The notes: a model not told the origin generated them from the sequence alone. Shown: positions 1 to 11,732, counted from the stretch's first letter. The stretch is DNA of 64,000 nt from Methanotrichaceae archaeon (GCA_963803145.1 CAWDLW010000015.1:361733-425732); one strand, 5' to 3'. Translations and numbers: made by a program.

Positions 1-429
1 GACCCCTTTGCCTCTAATAAAGTCACAAGTGTCTTCTTTTGCACCGTCAAGACTTATTTGTATATTATCTATTTTACTTTTTTTAAGCTTGGTGACAATA
101 GTCTCGTCTATTAAAGTGCCGTTGCTCAATATATTTTTTCTTATTTCTGGAAATTTTTGGTTACAATAGTCCAATAAATTGAAGAACTCATCCCCAAGAA
201 TAAATGGCTCTCCTCCTGTAAAGGCAATCTTCGGAACTTTTTTTATTTTTTTACAGAATTTTGCGAAATCTGATATTATCTTTTTTTTCCGATCAAAATT
301 AGTTTCTGTTCCTATATATTCTAAATTCTGATAACAATGTTTACACTTAAGATTACATTTATCAGTAAGATGCCATTGTAAGATAAATGCCTGTTGAAAC
401 TGGTTTTGCTTTTCAAAATTATGGTTCAT
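1..429 (-). CDS. Radical SAM protein, PqqE/SkfB-like peptide-maturase type (5' part; runs off the window)
   Basis: Not in ORF track. Manual translation from ATG at 429 (GGTGA RBS upstream): MNHNFEKQNQFQQAFILQWHLTDKCNLKCKHCYQ...IAFTGGEPF...ILSNGTLID...IQISLDGAKEDTCDFIRGKGV; CxxxCxxC, GGEP and SLDG motifs. Confidence 0.93.
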   Translation of the reverse strand, partial: MNHNFEKQNQFQQAFILQWHLTDKCNLKCKHCYQNLEYIGTETNFDRKKKIISDFAKFCKKIKKVPKIAFTGGEPFILGDEFFNLLDYCNQKFPEIRKNILSNGTLIDETIVTKLKKSKIDNIQISLDGAKEDTCDFIRGKGV

Positions 430-559
430 TCGGTCTCACCTAATTTAAATAAGACATATTTATTCATGCCACGAATAATTAAAGGTTCTCTATTCACAAT
501 TCAATCATTACAAAGAGATTGTTTTATTAAACTTTTCCTAACTATAGAGGATTCGCATG

Positions 560-870
560 AGAACCACTTCATCGACACCGCGTAAGGAGCATGTCAGCCA
601 CATGCACCCGATCATTCTTCCTGATTTCATAGCCACCCCCGTTAAAGGAGGTCTATCCTGAAGTTATAAGCATCTCTGGCGTGTGGAATTGGTCGGTGAC
701 GATACAAATATCTTGTCTCTCGATGGATTGATCCAATTCGCTTGTAAGCACTTTGAGGAAAACGAATGGCAATCAATAATAAGGCAGCGCTCAAAATTGT
801 TCCAATATTTTTTGCACTTATTCTCTAAGCGCCTCATTATACGGCCTGAAGCAGGTGGCACGCATTTCAT
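560..870 (-). pseudogene. Degraded fragment resembling N-formylglutamate amidohydrolase
   Basis: Fragments CLIIDCHSFS and, in another frame, RQDICIVTDQFHTP; boundaries approximate. Confidence 0.4.
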
Positions 871-889
871 CCTTTTAATATGAAAATGA

Positions 890-1700
890 TTTGATCCATA
901 TCTATGCAGTTTCCGCTTTTGCCACGAATATCCAGCCTTTTCAAGTTATCTCAATATCGATCGCGCTCGCTTCTTCAAGACTCTTTCGCAAATTGCTTCA
1001 GTTCCTATTATCATGATAAGGCTCACCTTTATTGAGGACAAAATAGATATCGATCAGTATACGATGCGCTATGGCAACAAGAGCCCTTATTTGCCACTCC
1101 TTCTGGCAATATTGTCGTAGCAGTGGATTCAACCTGCGTAAAGGTCACGAGAAAGGAGAATAGGTAGGAGAGAAACATGGTACTGAGCCCAGAGGTTAGA
1201 TCAAGTTACATATCGCTGTTGATATTGAGACGAAGAAACCAATATCTTTCGAGATCACTGATGAGAGAACGCCTGACGTAAGATGGTCAGGCCTCAACTG
1301 AATGGCGTATTGATGAAGGATTCTATAATGGATACTGGCTATGATACTGAAGTCGTATTTAAATTTATAAAGGAGTGACATTGGCTAATATCAACGTCAG
1401 AAAGAATGCTATTGTTAAGGCGGGTACTGAGATGGCTGAGTCAGTTCTGGAATTAAAGAAATATGGATATGGTAGCTGGAAAAAGATTCAAAAATATAGC
1501 AAGAGATGGGCAGCAGAAAGCTTCTTTTCTGTGATCAAAAGAATCTTTGGAAAAACTGTTAGATCTAACTCTTTAGAAGACATGATAATGTAAGTAGCAG
1601 GCGGATAGCGCCTTTTAATATAATATTATCATGGTTAGATATTGAAATTTATTCATTAAATACATTATCGTATATCAATAATTATTCAATTATCCAACAC
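890..1700 (+). mobile_element. IS5-family transposase relic with stops and frameshifts
   Basis: Fragments IVVAVDSTCVKVT, IKLHIAVDIETKK, YSKRWAAESFFSVIKRIFG; boundaries approximate. Confidence 0.75.
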
Positions 1701-1815
1701 AGTGTGGTATATGAAGTCAACGGTTTCGGGACTCTACAATTTAGGAATTCTCAAGCGAAATATTCATTAATACAGACAACGAAAGTACAAAGGTTATAAT
1801 TATTGGAGATTAAAA

Positions 1816-1917
1816 ATGAAATATGAAAAACCTGAAATCACGGAGCTAGAACTAAATGACGAAATAGATGATGATGAAATAAGCATAAATTGCGAAGGGT
1901 GCGGATGTGGAACTTAG
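1816..1917 (+). CDS. Putative RiPP precursor peptide, 33 aa: MKYEKPEITELELNDEIDDDEISINCEGCGCGT
   Basis: Below ORF-track cutoff; GGAG RBS upstream; YxxP leader motif, acidic linker, Cys/Gly-rich C-terminus; just upstream of a PqqD/RRE gene. Confidence 0.8.
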   Translation: MKYEKPEITELELNDEIDDDEISINCEGCGCGT

Positions 1918-2056
1918 TCAAATGGCGGCGATGCGCCCCACTGCAAGCAGCGGAGCATGCAAGGCACTGCCGCATAATTCACAGTTGGCTAACTGATCCC
2001 ACCTACGTTGGATGAGAATGCTCTTTTATCCAAGCCACACCAAGCTGTAGGGTATT
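1916..2056 (-). mobile_element. Non-autonomous IS200/IS605-type mini-element (~140 bp)
   Basis: Both ends are degenerate reverse complements of the two hairpin ends of the IS200 element at 3156-3763; no ORF inside. Confidence 0.7.
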
Positions 2057-2104
2057 ACTTTTAAAATAAAATGCGAAAAACCTGAAATTAAGGAATAGGG
2101 ACAT

Positions 2105-2356
2105 ATGGAAATTTCCAGGTCGATTAAGATGGTTAGGCGACTTGATAAAATACTACTATATTCGTCAGAGGAAGGAGATTTATTCCAGATAAATGAAATA
2201 GGCGCTTTTATTTTAGAAAAAATAAGAACGGGGAAAAATGAGAGAGAAATAGTTTTAGAACTGGAAAAAGAAACATATGAAAAAGAGGATAGAATAAAAG
2301 AGGATGTAAAAGAGTTTTTAGGAATCCTTAAAGAAAAAGGCATAATAAATGATTGA
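2105..2356 (+). CDS. PqqD family protein / RiPP recognition element (RRE)
   Basis: 83 aa; LFQINEIGAFILE...IVLELEKETYE...DVKEFLGILKEKGII pattern typical of PqqD. Confidence 0.9.
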   Translation: MEISRSIKMVRRLDKILLYSSEEGDLFQINEIGAFILEKIRTGKNEREIVLELEKETYEKEDRIKEDVKEFLGILKEKGIIND

Positions 2357-3155
2357 TAGTAGATTAATTGGTATTCTTGATAGAGATGTATTAATTCTTA
2401 TAAAAATTTTGAAGAGGATGCAAAAGGTAGGTATAGAAAATTCACGGCAAACACAAGTTGCAGGTGCATTATTGAAATTGGGTCTGGATAAAGAGGATGA
2501 ATCTCTACAAAAAGTCCTTCAGGTATCCATACAAAGAACCGAGGAAAATAAAATCTCTGATATGAGCGAAGCAATAAATTGTCTGAAATTGTTTTCCTTT
2601 TATAAAAGATGTTTTGAAACAAGTGTAACGAAACTAGTAAATATTATTGTAGATTGTTTGAATGATGATGGAGGATTGGGGAAATTCAAAGGAGATAGAA
2701 GTAGAATTCCCATTTGTTGGAGTTTATTAGAATCTTTTTACTACCTCAACAAGGAGGAAGATAATAATATTGTAGAAATTATTAATTGCATGGAAAGAGA
2801 GTGGTCGAATGATATGAAATTCGGTGGATTAAGCTATAAATGTGCTGGAATACTAATTGCAGCCAATTACTATCCCCTATTTGATAATGAATTTATTGAG
2901 AAATCATTGAATTGGTTAATAAATGATCAATCCGAAGATGGTGGATGGAGTGCCAAGAAAGGTTTTTCTGTTGGTTCAGTTCCGTCTTATACTGGATTAG
3001 CATTGCGGGCACTAACAAACTATGGAAAAAGCGATGAAGTTGAAAATACAATTTCACATGGAATAGGTTGGCTAATAGCAACAAGGCAAAGGGGTTTATG
3101 GAAAGAACATCCGATAGAAAGAGCATTAATAGAAGTAGATTTGTTTTTATTTTAA
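2349..3155 (+). CDS. Prenyltransferase/squalene-oxidase repeat (alpha/alpha toroid) protein
   Basis: QW-type repeats LNDDGGLG and WLINDQSEDGGW, TGLALRAL, GIGWLIA; start overlaps the PqqD stop. Confidence 0.8.
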   Translation: MIDSRLIGILDRDVLILIKILKRMQKVGIENSRQTQVAGALLKLGLDKEDESLQKVLQVSIQRTEENKISDMSEAINCLKLFSFYKRCFETSVTKLVNIIVDCLNDDGGLGKFKGDRSRIPICWSLLESFYYLNKEEDNNIVEIINCMEREWSNDMKFGGLSYKCAGILIAANYYPLFDNEFIEKSLNWLINDQSEDGGWSAKKGFSVGSVPSYTGLALRALTNYGKSDEVENTISHGIGWLIATRQRGLWKEHPIERALIEVDLFLF

Positions 3156-3763
3156 CGAATACCCCACAGCTTGCTGTGGGGATGGCAAACTAACAGGGGA
3201 TTAATAAGGTATTTAGTTCTAGCAGGCGCTATCTGAATTAATGCTGGAATTGCGGCATGCAAGCCATTGTGTTTACAGAATCAGATATCATATGGTGCTT
3301 TGTGTAAAATATAGAAAGAAATTACTTATCGATCAGGAAAGGATAGACCTTTTTAAGAATGTATGTATTGAGATTGGTGAAAGATATTGTTTTGAATTTG
3401 ATGCTATTGGGACAGATGGAGACCATGTCCACGTTTTTGTTGGATCAGCGCCAAAATATGCGCCATCTAAGGTTATGCAAGTTATAAAAAGTATAACTGC
3501 AAGGCAAATTTTCAGAGCCTTTCCTGAAATCAGAAAACAACTTTGGGGTGGAGAGTTTTGGAGTGATGGTGGCTATATTGGTACCGTAGGTGAGGGTATA
3601 ACTGCTGAAATTATAAGAAATTATATTGAAAGGCAAGGATCGATTGAGGAGAAAGAAAGCTATAATCAAATGAAGCTGTTTGAATTTGAATAAGCGGGGC
3701 TATTGCGGCGGCGCCTCGCATGCCCCGCAGCTTGCTGCGCGGGTGCGCCGCCGCAGTTTGACT
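3156..3763 (+). mobile_element. IS200/IS605-family element (TnpA only)
   Basis: Subterminal hairpins ccccacagcttgctgtgggg (3162) and ccccgcagcttgctgcgcggg (3723) flank tnpA. Confidence 0.9.
3241..3693 (+). CDS. tnpA: IS200 Y1 (HUH) transposase
   Basis: YHMVLCVKYR, DHVHVFV (HUH), LWGGEFWSDGGY, IRNYIERQ. Confidence 0.95.
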   Translation: MLELRHASHCVYRIRYHMVLCVKYRKKLLIDQERIDLFKNVCIEIGERYCFEFDAIGTDGDHVHVFVGSAPKYAPSKVMQVIKSITARQIFRAFPEIRKQLWGGEFWSDGGYIGTVGEGITAEIIRNYIERQGSIEEKESYNQMKLFEFE

Positions 3764-3819
3764 CAATCAAATTTCATCCCAGCATAATAATAACATTTAA
3801 TACGAATTATTATTATAGT

Positions 3820-4584
3820 CTATTCAGTCTTCCACCAATCTCGATTTCCTGCAATCGCATCAGTTAGAAATTTCTTATGTCTTTCAATTTCTTCATAGAT
3901 TTCTCCATTCTTACAAATGAGGCCATGTCCTGGTACTAATATTTCGATCTTCATCTCTTTTAATTTTTCAAGCGATCGTATCCATAGTTCCCACAATTTA
4001 TGGTTTCCGAAACGCAATGTAGGTAAATATTTTGAGTAAATCAAATCGCCTACATAAATTACTCTCTCTTCAGGCATATAAACCGAAATATTAGTATCAG
4101 TATGTCCAGGCGTCAGAATTAGTTCCACTTCGATTCCACCTACACTTAATGATGTATCTTTTTCGATAAATTTATCTGGATTACAAACGATAGTCTTAGC
4201 AAAAAATTTTTCTATTTTCTTGGAGTCCTTCTGCTCTTTGAATCCTGATGAGAGTATATCGTTCATCCGGTTAATCATCGATTCCATATTCATATGTTTA
4301 TTATAAGCAATCATATTATATGCAATAATTTCGGCTCCGATTTCTTTGAAAATTGAATTGCCAAGCGTGTGATCAAAATGGAGTTCAGTATTGATCAAAT
4401 ACTTTATTTTATTCTGGGGTGCACTTACCTTAGCGTAACCTAAAATTGTTTGAGCTGATAGATAATTAAATGCGGAGTCGATAATCAATGTCTCTCCATC
4501 GCCTGTTATAAATCCGGCATTTACACTGAAACCAGTTTCATGAGCCAAACCAGTTACCGCAAAACAATGTCTACTAAGTTCCAT
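3820..4584 (-). CDS. MBL-fold metallo-hydrolase (cyclase-like)
   Basis: NTELHFDHTLGN (variant HxHxDH), TPGHT, GDL, LVPGHG. Confidence 0.9.
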   Translation of the reverse strand: MELSRHCFAVTGLAHETGFSVNAGFITGDGETLIIDSAFNYLSAQTILGYAKVSAPQNKIKYLINTELHFDHTLGNSIFKEIGAEIIAYNMIAYNKHMNMESMINRMNDILSSGFKEQKDSKKIEKFFAKTIVCNPDKFIEKDTSLSVGGIEVELILTPGHTDTNISVYMPEERVIYVGDLIYSKYLPTLRFGNHKLWELWIRSLEKLKEMKIEILVPGHGLICKNGEIYEEIERHKKFLTDAIAGNRDWWKTE

Positions 4585-4719
4585 AATTTGGTCTCCTTGC
4601 GGATTTAGAGATTAAATGATAGGATTACTATTAACTCTTGCTATTGAGCAGCTAATCCAATGTCGCTAATCACGTCGATATTATCCATTTTCCTTTAATT
4701 ATATCTTATATTGATTATT

Positions 4720-5305: not shown

Positions 5306-6388
5306 TAGTTAATCATTGAGCTTATTGCCCTATAGATACATTTAATAATTAATGCGTGAAAATACATAGGCATGGGTAGAAAACCTATAATAATTAGGCA
5401 TATATCAAAGATAGACCTTGATAAATTATATAAAAAAGAGACTGATCTAAGGATTAAGGAACGGTTATTGGCAATAATACATTTATATGAAGGGAAAAAC
5501 GTATATGAGGTAGCTGATATTTTAAAAAGGGGCGAGAGGACAATAAAATATTGGTTAAGCAGATGGAATAATCAAGGCTATAATGGATTGACACCAAAGA
5601 ATAGAAATGGCAAAAAGCCAAAGATGTCTCTTGATGAATGGGATAGAGTTATTAAAGAAATTGAAGACAAAGGAATGACGATAAAAGACGTATTAAAATA
5701 TGTAAGGGATACAAGAGGTATAGATTTTTCATATAAATATGGCTGGCGAATTTTAAGAGTAGTGAAAAAAGTTAAGTATGGGAAACCATACATCAGAAAT
5801 GAAAAGAGGCCTGCAGATGCAGAAAGTTTTTTAAAAAAGGATAAAATCAGTGCTGACCACTGTTACTGATCCTGTTATAGGATTTCTTGATGAAAGCTCT
5901 TTACAACAGCGCCCTAATACACGTAGAGTCTTAAACACTCATTTAATAAATTATAAACCTGGAAAGGTTAGATCAAGAACTATTTTTGGATTTATAGCAT
6001 TAAATGGCAATGATGAGGTTATGGTTTCCAACTCCTCTAAGAAGGAAGCGTTGATGGCATTTGCTCAAAATATAAGAAATAATAATATTATGAGGCCAAT
6101 TTGTATACTTTTAGATAATGCTAGAATTCATTTGGCCAAGAAATTTAGAAAACTAGCTGAGGAAATCGATATTCACTTAATTTATAATATCCCCTATTCA
6201 CCAGATTTGAATCCTATAGAATTCGGTTGGAAGGATTTCAAAAGAGAGATCGCCAAATACACTGATTTCGATGAAGCTATTATAGCTAGCCAAGATTGCG
6301 CTTTAGAAATATTTTATTCCAAAAAGGATGGATATTCAAAGTCCTGGGTGGAGCGATTTCTTAGTGCAAAAAGCTAGGAGATTAACTA
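5306..6388 (+). mobile_element. IS630-family element (copy A1), 1083 bp, TA target duplication
   Basis: Ends TAGTTAATC...GATTAACTA flanked by TA; orfA 5372-5869 (HTH) and orfB 5850-6377 (FLDES, LDNARIH, YSPDLNPIE). Confidence 0.95.
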
Positions 6389-6935: not shown

Positions 6936-8147
6936 GTGGCTGCAATGGCTTATAAGGCATTTATCATTGGTATTAACACACTAGGCTTGAAATATTGTGA
7001 TAGAGATGCAGATCTGATGAAATATGCCCTCTCAAAACGCGGCTATAATGTAAATGTAATAAATAAAGAAGCGAAAAAGTATGATATCATGCCGAAATAT
7101 ATCGATATATTGGGAGATTGCCGAATAGTAGATACCTTAATTTTCTTTTTTTCAGGTCATGGCAAACCCATTGGGCGCGAACTTTTTTTATTTACCAAGG
7201 GAGATGGTTCGGACGAATTAAACAAGATTCCAATTAGTGAGATTTTGGGGCCTTTGGAACGGTGCGCCGCCAAAAACAAACTTGTAATCTTAGATTGTTG
7301 CCGGGCAGGAAGACTAAATGGTAGTGGTGAGTGGAATTGTCCTGAACCGGGGGATTTCTATCGCATTCTTGTTGCTGCGAATCCTCTAGAAAAGGCCAAA
7401 GAGATCGATGATTTGCGAGCAAGTTTTTTAACGCATAAAATTCATTCAGCACTTACAAATCCTCCCGAAGCTATCTTGGACAAAGGAAAAATTCGAATAA
7501 ACAACCTTTCTGATTGGCTACGTAAGCAGGCGGACTTACATAATGTGTCATCATTGATAAAAGTCCCCCGACCATATCTGATTGGAGCCGATAGGGCGGA
7601 TTTTGAGATCTGCATTCTTGAAAAGTCACTTATCGAGCCAATGGAAGGCAAAACCATAATCAATGATAGGCAATTGATTGATGAAATAAGAGAATGGAAA
7701 GTGATTCATACAAAATCGCAATCCCTTCAAGATCATCTAGCCGAAATGATTCGACATCTTCATATATCCCGATTTGAACCCTTTGGTTCAAAGGGTTTTA
7801 ATAATTCAATGCAAAGCGCGGAAAATGAATGGATACGATGCGCTTCTTATTTTAAAGAGATACTGGAGGATGTTAAGGGATTTCGCTACATTGCGGCGAA
7901 TGAGGCAGTTCTACAGTGTTTACCATACGCTACAGAACCATCTATTAAACCTATATTGGATCGGATTAGAATAGCAAAGAGCCCTGAAGACGCTTTAGAT
8001 ATCCAACGACTGATAGTCGATATTAAACAAGTTATAGATGAAATGCTTCATGTAGCTGATAAACAAATTGTCTTATTAGTTGATAAGCTAGCAATTAAAT
8101 CATCGTCCGAAACGATTGAGGCAAATCATGTCGTTACAGAAGCTTGA
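6936..8147 (+). CDS. Caspase-family (peptidase C14) protein with uncharacterised C-terminal helical domain
   Basis: AFIIGIN, FFFSGHG (catalytic His), VILDCCRAG (catalytic Cys). Confidence 0.9.
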   Translation: MAAMAYKAFIIGINTLGLKYCDRDADLMKYALSKRGYNVNVINKEAKKYDIMPKYIDILGDCRIVDTLIFFFSGHGKPIGRELFLFTKGDGSDELNKIPISEILGPLERCAAKNKLVILDCCRAGRLNGSGEWNCPEPGDFYRILVAANPLEKAKEIDDLRASFLTHKIHSALTNPPEAILDKGKIRINNLSDWLRKQADLHNVSSLIKVPRPYLIGADRADFEICILEKSLIEPMEGKTIINDRQLIDEIREWKVIHTKSQSLQDHLAEMIRHLHISRFEPFGSKGFNNSMQSAENEWIRCASYFKEILEDVKGFRYIAANEAVLQCLPYATEPSIKPILDRIRIAKSPEDALDIQRLIVDIKQVIDEMLHVADKQIVLLVDKLAIKSSSETIEANHVVTEA

Positions 8148-11100
8148 AAGTAATTATAGAAATTTTTTGAACTCATATAAATCTGAGAAACAGCTGGACA
8201 TCCTTGAAGCTAAGAATCTTCTTAATACTTTTCGACAATCTGGCGAATTTATCAGCAGCCCAGAGGAAAGAGAGATTTTATCTGTATGGTGCAGGACAAT
8301 TGCAGACATAATCTTTGAGAATACAGGGGAATATCTTCCTGTGAGAATCTTTCCTTTAGATAACATCACAATATCATCTGAACCTGCCTCGATCCCCCTC
8401 CCTCGCCAGATACCTCCACCGCCAGCTGACTTTAAAGGCCGTAAGGACGAAATCATAAATATCCTATTATGCTTCGATAAGGTAAGACCCATCATCGGTC
8501 TGCGTGGTATGGCTGGCGTTGGCAAGACTGCACTAGCACTTGTTTTGGCAGAGAGGCTAAAAGACCGTTTTCCTGATGGGAATCTCTTTCTAAACCTGCA
8601 AGGAACGACTAGTAATCCCCTTAGAGCAGCTGATGCTATGGCCCAAGTCATCCATTCGTATTACCCAACTAAACGCCTGCCAGAGAGAGAAGACGAGTTG
8701 CGTGGGCTATATCTCTCAGTTCTGTCTGACAAACGAGTACTGCTTTTATTAGACAATGCGAAGAATAGAGAGCAGGTTGAGCCGTTGTTGCCTCCTTCAA
8801 GCTGCGCCGTTTTAATCACCTCAAGAAATAAATTTTCTTTGCCAGGCTTAACGGCACGAGATCTGGATGTTTTGAGTTCTGCAGAAGCTCGTGAACTGCT
8901 CCTCGAAATCGCCGGACGGATTGGCGATCGATCTGACAATTTGGCAAATCTTTGCGGAAATCTTCCCCTGGCCCTTCGAAATGCTGCAAGCGTCTTGGCC
9001 GAGAGGGGAGACATAGATGTGGCTGATTACGAACGCTGCCTAAGTGACAAAAAGATGAGGCTAGATCTAGTATATGCTTCATTCAGTTTGACTTACGATC
9101 TTTTGTCTCCAGTGAAAAAGAAGCATTGGTGTCGTCTTTCGGTCTTTCCGCAAGACTTTGACCTAAAAGGTGGAACAGCAGTTTTGAAGATGGCTCTTGA
9201 ACCATCTGCTAAGGTATTGAGCGACTTAGTTAAATGTAGTCTCGTGGATTTTATTCGCCCCGTAGATTCCGGAGAGGGACGTTACAAGCTGCATGACTTG
9301 GCTCGCCTTTTCGCTGAATCACGCCTGGAATCCAAGGAGCGTGACGATGCTGAGCATTGCCATGCTAAGTATTACTTGATAATGCTCTCTTCTGCGGAAA
9401 CTCTCTACAATAAGGGCGGGGAAAATGTCATGGAAGGGCTGAAAATTCTCGATCGAGAATGGGCGAATGTGCAGGCCGGACAGGCATTTGCCGTAAAAAA
9501 TGCCAAAAAAAATGCGGATGCAGCTGCCCTCTGCATTGAATACGCTGATCCAGTGGGTATCCTTTCATTGCGATTGCATCCCAACGATCTAATTCACTGG
9601 CTTGAGGTTTCTTTGGATGCAGCTAAGCAATTAAAAAGATCAGCTCAAGAAGGCATCATTCTAACGAAGATAGGATATACCTACTTCCAACTGGGCAAGG
9701 TTCAAGAGGCAATCCATCTCCATGAGAAGGCACTGACTATAAGCCGCAAGATCGGTGCCAGACGAGGTGAAGGAACCGTTCTGGGAAACCTGGGACAGGC
9801 CTATGCTGCTCTGGGCGAGACACGGAAGGTCATCGAATATTCTGAACACGCGCTGGCCATCGACCGTGAAATCGGAAACAAAAAAGGGGAAGATATCCGC
9901 TTGGGCAATCTGGGCTGTGCTTATTATGATTTAGGCGAGATGCATAAGGCCATCGAGTACTACGAGCAGGCGCTGACCATCGACCACGAGATTGGAGACA
10001 GAAGGAGCGAAGGAAAGCATCTGGGCGATATGGGATTGGCTTATGCCAGTCTGGGAAAGACTCGCGAAGCCATCGAGTACTACAAGCAGGCCTTGAATAT
10101 TGCTTGCGAGCTCGGCGACCTAAGGACTAAAGGAAGACACATGGGCAATTTGGGCGGTGCTTATTACGATCTAGGCTATATTCGTAAAGCGATCGAGCAC
10201 TATGAGCAGGCGCTGGCCATCAGCCGCGAGATCGGGAACCCATGGATTGAAGGAGAAAATCTATGTAATTTAGGGAATGCCTATGCTGCCTTAGAGGATA
10301 CTAACAAGGCAATTATAGTTAATCCACGTAATTTTTACCTCATAGATACCCTTAAATAATTAATATACGATATAGCCGTTCATGGGCAGGAAACCTGTAA
10401 TTGTAAGACATATCTCGAAGGTAGAATTAGATCAATTGTATAAAGATGAGAGAAACATAAGAATTAAAGAACGGCTACTAGCGATAATACATTTATACGA
10501 AGGAAAGAATGTATATATAGTAGCTGATATTCTTAAACGAAGTGAAAAGACAATAAAGAATTGGCTAAGCGATTGGAACAAACAAGGATATGATGGATTG
10601 ATACCACAGAATAGAAACGGCAAAGAACCAATGATATCTTTTGATGAATGGGATAAAATTATCGAAGAGATTGAGGACAAAGGAATGACTATAAAAGAGG
10701 TAATAAAATATGCAAAAGACACAAGAGGCGTAGAATATTCGTATAAAGGTGGTTGGAAGATTTTAAGATCAATAAAGAAAGTCAAATATGGTAAACCATA
10801 TATTAGAAATAATAAGAGGCCTGTTAATGCAGAAAGTTTTCTAAAAAAAGGATAGATTCAGTAATAACAACAGTCAAAGAACCTATTATTGGATTCCTTG
10901 ATGAAAGCTCTTTGCAACAGCGACCTAATACACGCAGGGTTTTAAACACCCATATGCTAAATTATCAACCTGGAAAAGTTAGGTCTAGAACTGTTTTTGG
11001 GTTCATTGCATTGAATGGAAATGATGAAGTTATGGTCTCTCACTCATCCAAGAAAGAAGATTTAATGATCTTCGCCCAAAAATTGAGAAGTAACAATATT

Positions 11101-11732
11101 ATGAGACCAATATGTATTGTCCTAGATAATGCTAGAATACATCTAGCTAAGAAGTTTAGGGCATTAGCCCACGAACTTGATATCCATTTAATATATAACG
11201 TGCCATATTCCCCTGATTTAAATCCTATAGAGTTCGGTTGGAAGGATTTTAAAAGAGAGATATCAAAATATACTGATTTTGATGAAGCTATTGAGGATGC
11301 CCAAGATTGCGCTTTACAAATATTTTATTCCAATAAAGATGGATACTCTAAGTCTTGGATAAAGCAGTTTATAAGGTAAAAAGTTGGGAGAATGACTATA
11401 AATACTATGAGCAGTCGCTTGGGATTGTTCGCATGATCGGGGATCGAAAGAATGAGGGCAATGCTCTTTGTAACCTTGGAAAGGTCTATGCCGCCCTTGA
11501 CGAAGTCTGCAAAGCGATCGAGCACTACGAGCAATCGTTAGAGATCTTTCGCCGGATCGAATACTGCCGAGGAGAAGGTGATGCCCTATTCAACATGAGC
11601 TTAGCGCATGAAAAGATTGGCCATCGACAGGAGGCAATCAATCATGCGAAGGAAGCACTAAGAATTTTCGAGCAGATCGAAAGTCCATATTCTGAGAAAG
11701 CGCGGCAAAAGTTGGCGGAATGGAAAGGATAA
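8128..11732 (+). pseudogene. STAND NTPase (NB-ARC) with TPR repeats, interrupted by IS630
   Basis: Walker A GMAGVGKT, Walker B LLLLDNA, ITSR, GNLPLAL, LHDL, many TPRs; removing 10316-11400 rejoins ...KAIKYYEQSLG in frame (about 839 aa). Confidence 0.9.
10316..11398 (+). mobile_element. IS630-family element (diverged relative of A1), 1083 bp
   Basis: TA duplication at 10314-15 and 11399-400; orfA 10382-10855, orfB to 11379; -1 junction at an A7 run. Confidence 0.95.

Follow-up and report, generated by a model that had tools for sequence, protein, structure and literature searches.

A decaying locus in a Methanotrichaceae archaeon as the probable remnant of a rare, so far undescribed peptide-maturation system

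What a 33-codon open reading frame (ORF) is doing between a divergently transcribed radical S-adenosylmethionine (SAM) gene and a PqqD-like gene is the question raised by the left end of a 64,000-nucleotide stretch of DNA from a Methanotrichaceae archaeon (GCA_963803145.1, CAWDLW010000015.1:361733-425732), here called the window. A preliminary description had taken this ORF for the hidden precursor of a peptide made on the ribosome and modified after translation (RiPP), served by a PqqD-like RiPP recognition element (RRE) and by the radical SAM enzyme. Judged by the comparison of related loci presented here, its observation is confirmed and its interpretation supported. With a probability of about three in four, we regard the locus as a genuine but decaying copy of a rare and so far undescribed archaeal system for the maturation of ribosomal peptides. 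The core of this system consists of one to several tandem precursors of 27-33 amino acids (aa) ending in CxxCxC, a stand-alone RRE, a radical SAM/SPASM enzyme that has no RRE of its own and an alpha/alpha-toroid of ~270 aa, its gene being coupled in translation to that of the RRE. In the window the locus is laid out as follows.

1..429, minus strand: N-terminal part of the radical SAM/SPASM maturase gene (CNLKCKHC at residues 25-32; PF04055, E 2e-17)
430..1815, no strand: divergent intergenic stretch with transposase debris (relics at 1200-1590, plus strand, and 1001-1144, minus strand; weak DDE_Tnp_1 match)
1816..1917, plus strand: precursor peptide gene, 33 aa (GGAG upstream; family alignment)
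1916..2070, no strand: repeat-like DNA inserted in the gap between precursor and PqqD genes (73-83% similar to four other sites of the genome)
2071..2098, plus strand: 5'-end relic of a second precursor copy (one frame reads ..E-K-P-E-I-K-E-stop)
2105..2356, plus strand: stand-alone PqqD-family RRE gene, 83 aa (PF05402, E 2.1e-13)
2349..3155, plus strand: alpha/alpha-toroid gene, 268 aa, 12 helices, clipped at its 3' end (PF13243; AlphaFold2 fold)

Relatives of this locus are few. Including the window protein, 21 close homologues of the toroid were found among 5.77 billion clustered proteins; a set of 1.84 billion representatives gave 18 clusters at E ≤ 1e-30. There were 0 matches in 104 other genomes of the host's GTDB family and one real match (G261, E 2e-44; locus L079) among 400 sampled genomes of the phylum. 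A metagenome scan returned nine true relatives (L049-L057) among 29 loci, nearly full length and with 34-84% identity. GTDB species representatives were also scanned with the toroid profile; the 38 loci obtained were partial, single-repeat matches of at most 81 residues, mostly in Planctomycetota, and none was a family member. The comparisons that follow cover L049-L057, L079 and the window (n=11).

At 1816-1917 on the plus strand, the translation of the small ORF is exactly the peptide quoted in the preliminary description, and the ribosome-binding site claimed for it is present as GGAG, 10-13 nt before the ATG. The peptide starts with the leader M-K-Y-E-K-P-E-I-T-E-L-E-L, continues through an acidic linker and ends in the core C-E-G-C-G-C-G-T. 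It had been called unannotated, a status that is uncertain since the exact 33-aa sequence is already recorded as a predicted protein in a public collection; for 5/7 related peptides looked up there no record was present. Over the 11 loci we counted 21 full-length small ORFs of 27-55 aa, one to three per related locus and at least four in L049, located in the gap between the radical SAM and PqqD genes or, in L079, between the PqqD and toroid genes. In the alignment, which holds 18 of these peptides, M1, Y3, P6, C26, C29 and C31 are invariant, the three cysteines forming the C-terminal CxxCxC; L, I or F occupies position 8, from which point every other residue tends to be hydrophobic, so that the leader can be written M-x-Y-[EKQ]-x-P-x-[LIF]. 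The Cys motif lies 1-5 residues from the C-terminus in 18/18 aligned peptides. A similar peptide, with an M-x-Y-x-x-P leader and a C-terminal Cys motif, accompanies the homologous PqqD/toroid pair in 10/10 related loci, as the preliminary description would have it.

In addition, a motif derived from the family peptides, which is circular for the true loci and serves as a measure of background, matched once over the six frames of the 4.13-Mb host genome (51 contigs), at the window ORF, and gave 0 matches in 630 kb of unrelated loci. The DNA of the window peptide aligns with the tandem copies of L049 and its flanking DNA does not. On this conservation we consider the 33-aa ORF a genuine precursor peptide gene, in a family of which 0/15 peptides match any NCBIfam model at E ≤ 10. 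Three core subtypes could be distinguished: C-x-H-C-x-C-T, C-x-S-C-x-C-x-C-G-x and C-x-x-C-G-C-G-x, the last being the only one in the clade of the window and L049. The first two occur as a pair in six loci (L050, 7484-7675; L051, 488-666; L052, 130-318; L053, about 100-278; L055, 603-793; L056, 249-429), and this pairing suggests a two-component product, or two substrates of one enzyme set.

The genes around the peptide are conserved as well. A PqqD-like gene coupled to a toroid-fold gene had been proposed downstream, and this holds: the protein reaches 50.8 bits with PF05402 (cut-off 23.4), staying below the cut-off of every curated PqqD sub-family model, and its stop codon and the toroid ATG overlap by 8 nt according to the ORF coordinates. 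In 11/11 loci the PqqD gene is directly upstream of the toroid gene or overlaps it. The divergent CxxxCxxC radical SAM gene was likewise correctly recognized (see CNLKCKHC and the PF04055 match above), as was the relic nature of the DNA separating it from the peptide: the 1386-bp gap has only transposase remnants inside, and the corresponding spacer measures ~70-90 bp in L050, L055, L056 and L057. A radical SAM/SPASM gene is present in 8/8 loci with enough contig, that is, in 7/7 related loci and the window, so that the synteny implied earlier is found elsewhere; L049, L052 and L053 end too early. Its orientation is divergent in most loci and co-directional in L054 and L079. These enzymes have no N-terminal RRE, and in the homologues the CxxxCxxC motif starts at residue 15-36. 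The best NCBIfam scores of the intact relatives are 178-204 bits (cut-off 400 for TIGR04340 and 500 for NirJ2), and lower scores still were obtained on the SbtM, GeoRSP, mycofactocin, PqqE, PapB, StsB and AlbA models. These scores, the peptides without NCBIfam match and the absence of a lasso cyclase or protease agree with the earlier view that the pathway falls outside described classes.

In the window's genome this radical SAM gene is broken. The preliminary description expected a SPASM domain, a protease and a transporter further left on the contig; in the 15 kb immediately left of the window (L009) the SPASM domain is found, beyond an insert resembling the IS66 family of insertion sequences (IS), and neither a protease nor a transporter is there. 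The two further features needed here are these.

L009 12811-13341, ~1.7-2.2 kb left of the window: SPASM half of the radical SAM gene (TIGR04085 match)
3146..3764, plus strand: IS200/IS605-type element, Y1 transposase at 3241-3693 (PF01797, E 2.1e-33)

The radical SAM ORF, whose fragment runs 140 bp beyond the left window edge, ends after 189 codons, of which 186 are native and the last few are read from the inserted element. This insert of 1.5 kb encodes a 472-aa IS66-like transposase (L009 13330-14870; NF033517, E 4.9e-39, 134.5 bits, below the cut-off of 180) and is flanked by inverted repeats and an 8-bp target duplication, ACTCTTTA. Past the insert the frame resumes in a 165-aa SPASM piece (L009 12811-13308; TIGR04085, 35.5 bits vs 27) with seven visible Cys. 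Aligned separately, the two pieces together cover intact homologues from one end to the other and meet between CDSL and NVS, and the break point falls between the radical SAM core and the SPASM domain. Because three further copies of the element in the genome are at least 99.15% identical to it, the insertion is taken to be recent.

Altogether, four independent mobile-element events were recognized within ~5 kb of the window locus. The relic at 1200-1590 has 47-54% amino-acid identity to a transposase elsewhere in the genome, and that at 1001-1144 matches two further elements; debris of this kind has swollen the promoter region. The 28-bp relic of the second precursor, which comes after the repeat-like DNA of 1916-2070, is marked by the leader 14-mer, which occurs in the 64 kb only at 1825 and 2075 (0.05 expected). 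At the 3' end of the toroid gene, the last ~13 native codons have given way to the end of the IS200/605 element, which has two other genome copies with 100% identity over ~617 bp; this tail is the least conserved part of the family. Both the IS66-like and the IS200/605 elements look active. What has stayed intact is the peptide, the RRE and the greater part of the toroid ORF; neither an IS-free allele nor a second intact radical SAM copy of this family came up in the 51 contigs, where searches with the toroid, with PqqD and with the peptide motif each matched the window locus alone. With its radical SAM gene split and the locus riddled with mobile elements, the pathway is very probably inactive here and the cluster very probably dead in this genome. 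The earlier reading as a RiPP cluster is upheld for the gene set, though very probably not for a working pathway in this genome.

The toroid is the most specific marker of the set. Its ORF matches SQHop_cyclase_C (PF13243) with 29.7 bits (cut-off 26.1) and falls just under the cut-off for Prenyltrans (PF00432; 25.5 vs 26.5 bits). The AlphaFold2 model, based on a 21-sequence alignment, is a 12-helix alpha/alpha barrel (pLDDT 93, pTM 0.91) whose closest folds are 8paj (Z 23.9, root-mean-square deviation (rmsd) 2.9 over 257 residues) and squalene-hopene cyclase (SHC; 1gsz, Z 23.4), followed by drimenyl diphosphate synthase (8zg0, Z 23.1) and MstE (Z 20.9); the beta subunit of farnesyltransferase (2zir_B) reaches Z 16.3 with an rmsd of 4.1. 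Furthermore, the family profile matches SHC residues 448-593 (E 7.6e-16), and QW-like repeats of the form W-L-x-x-D-Q-x-x-D-G-G-W are present. By its predicted fold the toroid thus resembles class II terpene cyclases more closely than it does prenyltransferases: the barrel announced in the preliminary description stood, and its label as a prenyltransferase repeat is the less fitting one. The DxDD general-acid motif is a defining feature of class II cyclases. It is absent from all 21 aligned toroid sequences, in which the expected helix start reads S-E-x-I and is not invariant. The alignment has 41 invariant columns, concentrated in the loops before the inner helices and including E30, R33, D116, S118, R119, Y163, K164, D197, W200, S210, T215, W251, E253 and H254; of these, E30, R33, D116, R119, Y163, K164, W200, S210, T215, W251 and H254 are also kept in the toroid of L079, which is 27% identical. 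In the model the invariant residues would line one mouth of the barrel, and a conserved polar pocket of this kind would suit a hydrocarbon less well than a ligand such as a peptide or a diphosphate. A LanC-type cyclase was considered too; no LanC chain appeared among the best 50 rows of either fold search, by which a functional analogy is not excluded.

The family shares single (alpha/alpha)6 barrels and QW-like repeats (Z 21-24) with SHC, drimenyl diphosphate synthase, MstE and the small SHC-like proteins 8paj and 8pak. The cavity of class II terpene cyclases has an aromatic lining. In contrast, the conserved residues of the toroid are polar or charged (E30, R33, D116, R119, Y163, K164, H254), DxDD is missing, and the gene partners are peptide-modification genes instead of isoprenoid genes.

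Regarding the RRE, the interaction proposed in the preliminary description was modelled as a PqqD-peptide complex, using an alignment of 11 PqqD orthologues and one of 18 rows for the peptide. The model reached an ipSAE of 0.53, compared with 0.02 for the best of three controls, with a partner pLDDT of at least 57 and runs that agree in at least 92% of contacts. The ipSAE mark is reached by 58/80 solved complexes and 2/110 mismatched pairs; scores of at most 0.60 include only 7 of the 80 solved complexes, yet both passing mismatched pairs. The in-silico result lends weak support to the putative binding of the precursor leader by PqqD that was envisaged earlier.

Taken together, the parts suggest a mechanism in which the free RRE would bind the Y-x-x-P leader as a beta-strand and present the short Cys core to the radical SAM/SPASM enzyme, which would modify the cysteines. 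The RRE might also present the core to the toroid, which would perform or scaffold a second step through its strictly conserved polar pocket. Gene content, synteny, peptide motifs and insertions are observed, as is the fold; the binding, the order of the steps and all the chemistry are what we infer from them. For the product of the radical SAM enzyme, intramolecular thioether cross-links of the sactionine or ranthionine type, which the preliminary description had already surmised, would be the leading candidate at a little short of even odds, and another Cys-directed reaction, of the thiooxazole type or oxidative, is clearly less likely. Bolder, and in our view improbable, is that we are dealing with a new RiPP class marked by an RRE translationally coupled to an enzyme of class-II-terpene-cyclase/prenyltransferase fold; this toroid would carry out a novel reaction on the thiols (S-alkylation/lipidation or ring formation) of a C-terminal CxxCxC core that the RRE-dependent radical SAM/SPASM enzyme modifies as well, yielding two-component archaeal peptides (C-x-H-C-x-C and C-x-S-C-x-C-x-C-G) without described counterpart.

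How far do known systems account for such a gene set? The sactipeptide and ranthipeptide pathways (PapB, CteB, AlbA) have in common with it a SPASM-bearing radical SAM enzyme, recognition that depends on an RRE and a ribosomal substrate with a C-terminal Cys cluster. In those pathways, however, the RRE is fused to the enzyme and here it is a separate protein; the maturase relatives score 75-95 bits for PapB against 340 and ~100 for StsB against 625, with AlbA, CcpM and CefB also far below; the precursors here measure only 27-33 aa, carry a CxxCxC tail and lack a conserved acceptor motif; and the terpene-cyclase-fold partner, obligatory here, was not found reported in the literature searched on those pathways. 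The ACGX-repeat system (TIGR04340, a hypothetical equivalog) is by its name a Cys-Gly small-peptide system and gave the best or near-best full-length match of the radical SAM enzyme. Its scores are nevertheless low, 107.2 + 77.4 bits for the two pieces and 178-188 for the intact relatives vs 400, and no paper on this system was found in the literature. Lasso pathways, the analogy drawn earlier, share the Y-x-x-P leader, which is indeed invariant in the 18 peptides, and a small PqqD-type RRE gene overlapping the gene of the next enzyme, as in B1/B2. The analogy does not extend to the enzymes: neither a lasso cyclase (asparagine-synthetase-like) nor a B2 cysteine protease occurs in the window or the related loci examined, the lasso PqqD models give 22.6-33.3 bits vs cut-offs of 70-80, and the core has no acidic ring-closing residue pattern. 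The nearest study concerns the Crp system of Methanococcus voltae, in which, according to PMC13692751 (2026), an archaeal SPASM enzyme installs ranthionine links; CrpC is a member of TIGR04463 with an RRE fused to it, its substrates are proteins of at least 100 aa, and the study left out small peptides by design. No description of a cluster like the present one was found in the full-text literature searched, including term look-ups in the texts of PMC12710340 and PMC10288494; the supplements, also that of PMC13692751, could list related radical SAM clusters.

Several points weigh against a genuine peptide-maturation system as we propose it. The loci examined, including the stretch left of the window, have neither a protease nor a transporter in common, which makes a secreted product a poor fit and leaves removal of the leader unexplained. 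The complex prediction is a weak pass only, and since RRE-leader complexes have already been solved, this pass may reflect likeness to them. The radical SAM enzyme finds its best curated matches partly among peptide maturases (ACGX, SbtM, GeoRSP) and partly among tetrapyrrole enzymes (NirJ, AhbD), in every case far below cut-off, so that more than one type of reaction is conceivable. Around the Cys motif, the 18 aligned sequences do not conserve the acceptor residues that known thioether peptides typically have, the toroid could be non-catalytic, and the ten related loci include several short contigs and pairs of close kin (L052/L053, L050/L055).

The alternative that survives best is that the product of the locus stays inside the cell as a cofactor or metal-binding molecule derived from a peptide, as PQQ and mycofactocin are, with the CxxCxC(xC) tail, and His in one subtype, as a redox or metal site. 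We consider this unlikely, though several points favour it. PQQ (PqqA/PqqD/PqqE) and mycofactocin (MftA/MftB/MftC) combine a stand-alone PqqD-family chaperone with a radical SAM/SPASM enzyme that lacks an RRE and with a precursor of very small size, which is the PqqD/PqqE and MftB/MftC architecture seen here, and the aromatic-x-x-Pro-x-hydrophobic start of the leader presumably resembles that of PqqA. The mycofactocin (129-130 bits) and PqqE (101-106 bits) models are among the matches of the radical SAM enzyme, the lack of a conserved exporter or dedicated protease is in keeping with an intracellular product, as are the very short peptides with their paired subtypes in six loci, and the hosts are anaerobic archaea with a metal-rich metabolism; the operon for formylmethanofuran dehydrogenase (Fwd) is adjacent. 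On closer comparison the likeness weakens: the conserved residues are three Cys and not the Glu/Tyr (Glu-x3-Tyr) or Val-Tyr pair, PqqE (TIGR02109) scores 66.8 bits for the piece and 94-106 for intact relatives vs 381, PqqD (TIGR03859) 26.3 vs 46 and MftC 90-130 vs 265, so that the equivalog scores of both systems stay far below cut-off, and PqqB/C/F or MftD/E/F genes are not present. Additionally, a rare and patchy system (0/104 family genomes) whose loss is tolerated here does not behave as a core cofactor, and it is rather in natural-product RiPPs that one meets several divergent precursors in tandem.

A peptide-maturation system is also the starting point of a second, rather more doubtful alternative, in which the main catalytic role would fall to the toroid, by S-alkylation (for example prenylation) of the C-terminal cysteines, giving a lipidated archaeal peptide to which the radical SAM enzyme would add a separate modification. 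Protein prenyltransferase beta subunits act on C-terminal CaaX or CXC motifs, and archaea are rich in isoprenoid diphosphates. The position of the Cys motif close to the C-terminus in all aligned peptides agrees with such a role, and so do the sub-threshold PF00432 match, the weak profile matches to the beta subunits of GGTase-I and RabGGTase (E 0.018-0.2), the JGI label of one toroid homologue as 'prenyltransferase beta subunit', the SAM methyltransferase adjoining the set in L050 and L057 and the helical-repeat protein after the toroid in L050, L051 and L054. The fold argues otherwise, with Z 16.3 and rmsd 4.1 for farnesyltransferase beta vs Z 23-24 for class II terpene cyclases. The Zn site of protein prenyltransferases is made of Asp, Cys and His, and no invariant trio in such an arrangement was found in the toroid, where D116 and H254 are invariant and C165 is present in 19/21. 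Moreover, the methyltransferase is found in only 2 loci, and the helical-repeat protein gives generic matches only and is absent from the window's genome.

That the cluster might still function in this genome, for instance with toroid and RRE alone acting on the peptide, we hold to be very unlikely. The intact peptide and PqqD, with most of the toroid ORF and only its least conserved tail clipped, would allow for it; a radical SAM/SPASM enzyme present in 8/8 checkable loci is probably essential, though, and here a 1.5-kb element separates its core from its SPASM domain, no second toroid, PqqD or peptide copy was found in the genome, and four mobile-element events in 5 kb indicate relaxed selection. 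Lastly, to regard the 33-codon ORF as a chance open frame, with PqqD and toroid serving another substrate, is scarcely tenable, because although the ORF is short and lies in AT-rich DNA with mobile-element debris on its flanks, leader and Cys motif recur in 10/10 related loci even where toroid identity falls to 27%, the motif background is effectively zero, and only the coding DNA, not its flanks, aligns with the tandem copies of L049.

Other genes near the core set vary from locus to locus. In the window, the toroid gene is followed, beyond the IS200/605 element, by one further gene.

3820..4584, minus strand: metallo-beta-lactamase-fold gene, convergent on the toroid gene (PF00753, E 3.6e-27)

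This gene has the same position in the closest relative, L049 (1725-2453), and not in the more distant loci, and its membership of the system is uncertain. An APH-family kinase and a SAM-dependent methyltransferase stand beside the radical SAM gene in two distant loci only (L050, 4637-6378; L057, 4808-6312), the L057 methyltransferase having a weak likeness to the daptide RiPP methyltransferase (E 4.7e-10, below cut-off). A lanthipeptide-like route through the APH kinase was rejected, as the kinase occurs in 2 loci only and Ser/Thr of the core are not conserved. GNAT acetyltransferase genes lie ~3 kb or less from the toroid gene in 4/5 loci with enough downstream sequence (L050, 11374-11829; L051, 3406-3888; L056, 1486-1917; L057, 10671-11225), and none is near the window copy. 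The all-helical repeat protein of ~190 aa that follows the toroid gene (L050, 8822-9370, minus strand; L051, 1762-2364; L054, 4314-4898) belongs to no Pfam family, and its model (pLDDT 90) gave only generic matches to designed-repeat structures; for neither this protein nor the APH kinase does the window's genome hold a homologue. Both long loci, L050 (10239-11309, minus strand) and L057 (3604-4692, plus strand), have within 3 kb of the core set another radical SAM gene, different from the first, and L057 has a serine recombinase gene ~5 kb upstream of the set (673-1431). The recombinase hints that the gene set travels on a mobile island, in keeping with its patchy distribution.

To the left, the SPASM piece is followed by the operon for formylmethanofuran dehydrogenase (an FwdF-like gene and after it those of subunits A, C, D and B), which identifies the host as a methanogen-type archaeon. 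Rfam gave no match in 1-4700 at E ≤ 0.1. Further into the window, at 5372-6377 and 10382-11379, are two paralogous two-ORF transposase copies, each with a helix-turn-helix N-terminal ORF and a DDE-like ORF, very similar between the copies according to the ORF translations. The second copy directly follows a long repeat-rich ORF (8116-10359) that restarts at 11355-11732, and this arrangement suggests that the repeat-rich ORF around 8116-11732 may be another IS-interrupted gene. The 16 other PqqD genes in the phylum sample (E 1e-12 to 1e-7) turned out to belong to other systems, without toroid and without this peptide type. At another PqqD locus of the phylum (L091, G146:C1), near a distant radical SAM gene, a 60-aa ORF (2805-2987, minus strand) has a leader-like start, Y-S-S-P-K-L, and five Cys, and may represent another uncharacterised precursor family.

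The four-part system of precursors, free RRE, radical SAM/SPASM enzyme and toroid is covered by no curated model or searched paper. Only a small number of RiPPs have so far been described from archaea, and new peptide chemistry continues to emerge from radical SAM/SPASM enzymes. In this regard, the obligatory coupling of the toroid to an RRE suggests a fold not yet linked to ribosomal peptides and a possible new tailoring reaction, for which intact orthologue sets have been identified in L050, L054 and L057. The copy in the window, for its part, serves chiefly as a dated example of how IS66-like and IS200/605 elements take a biosynthetic island apart.

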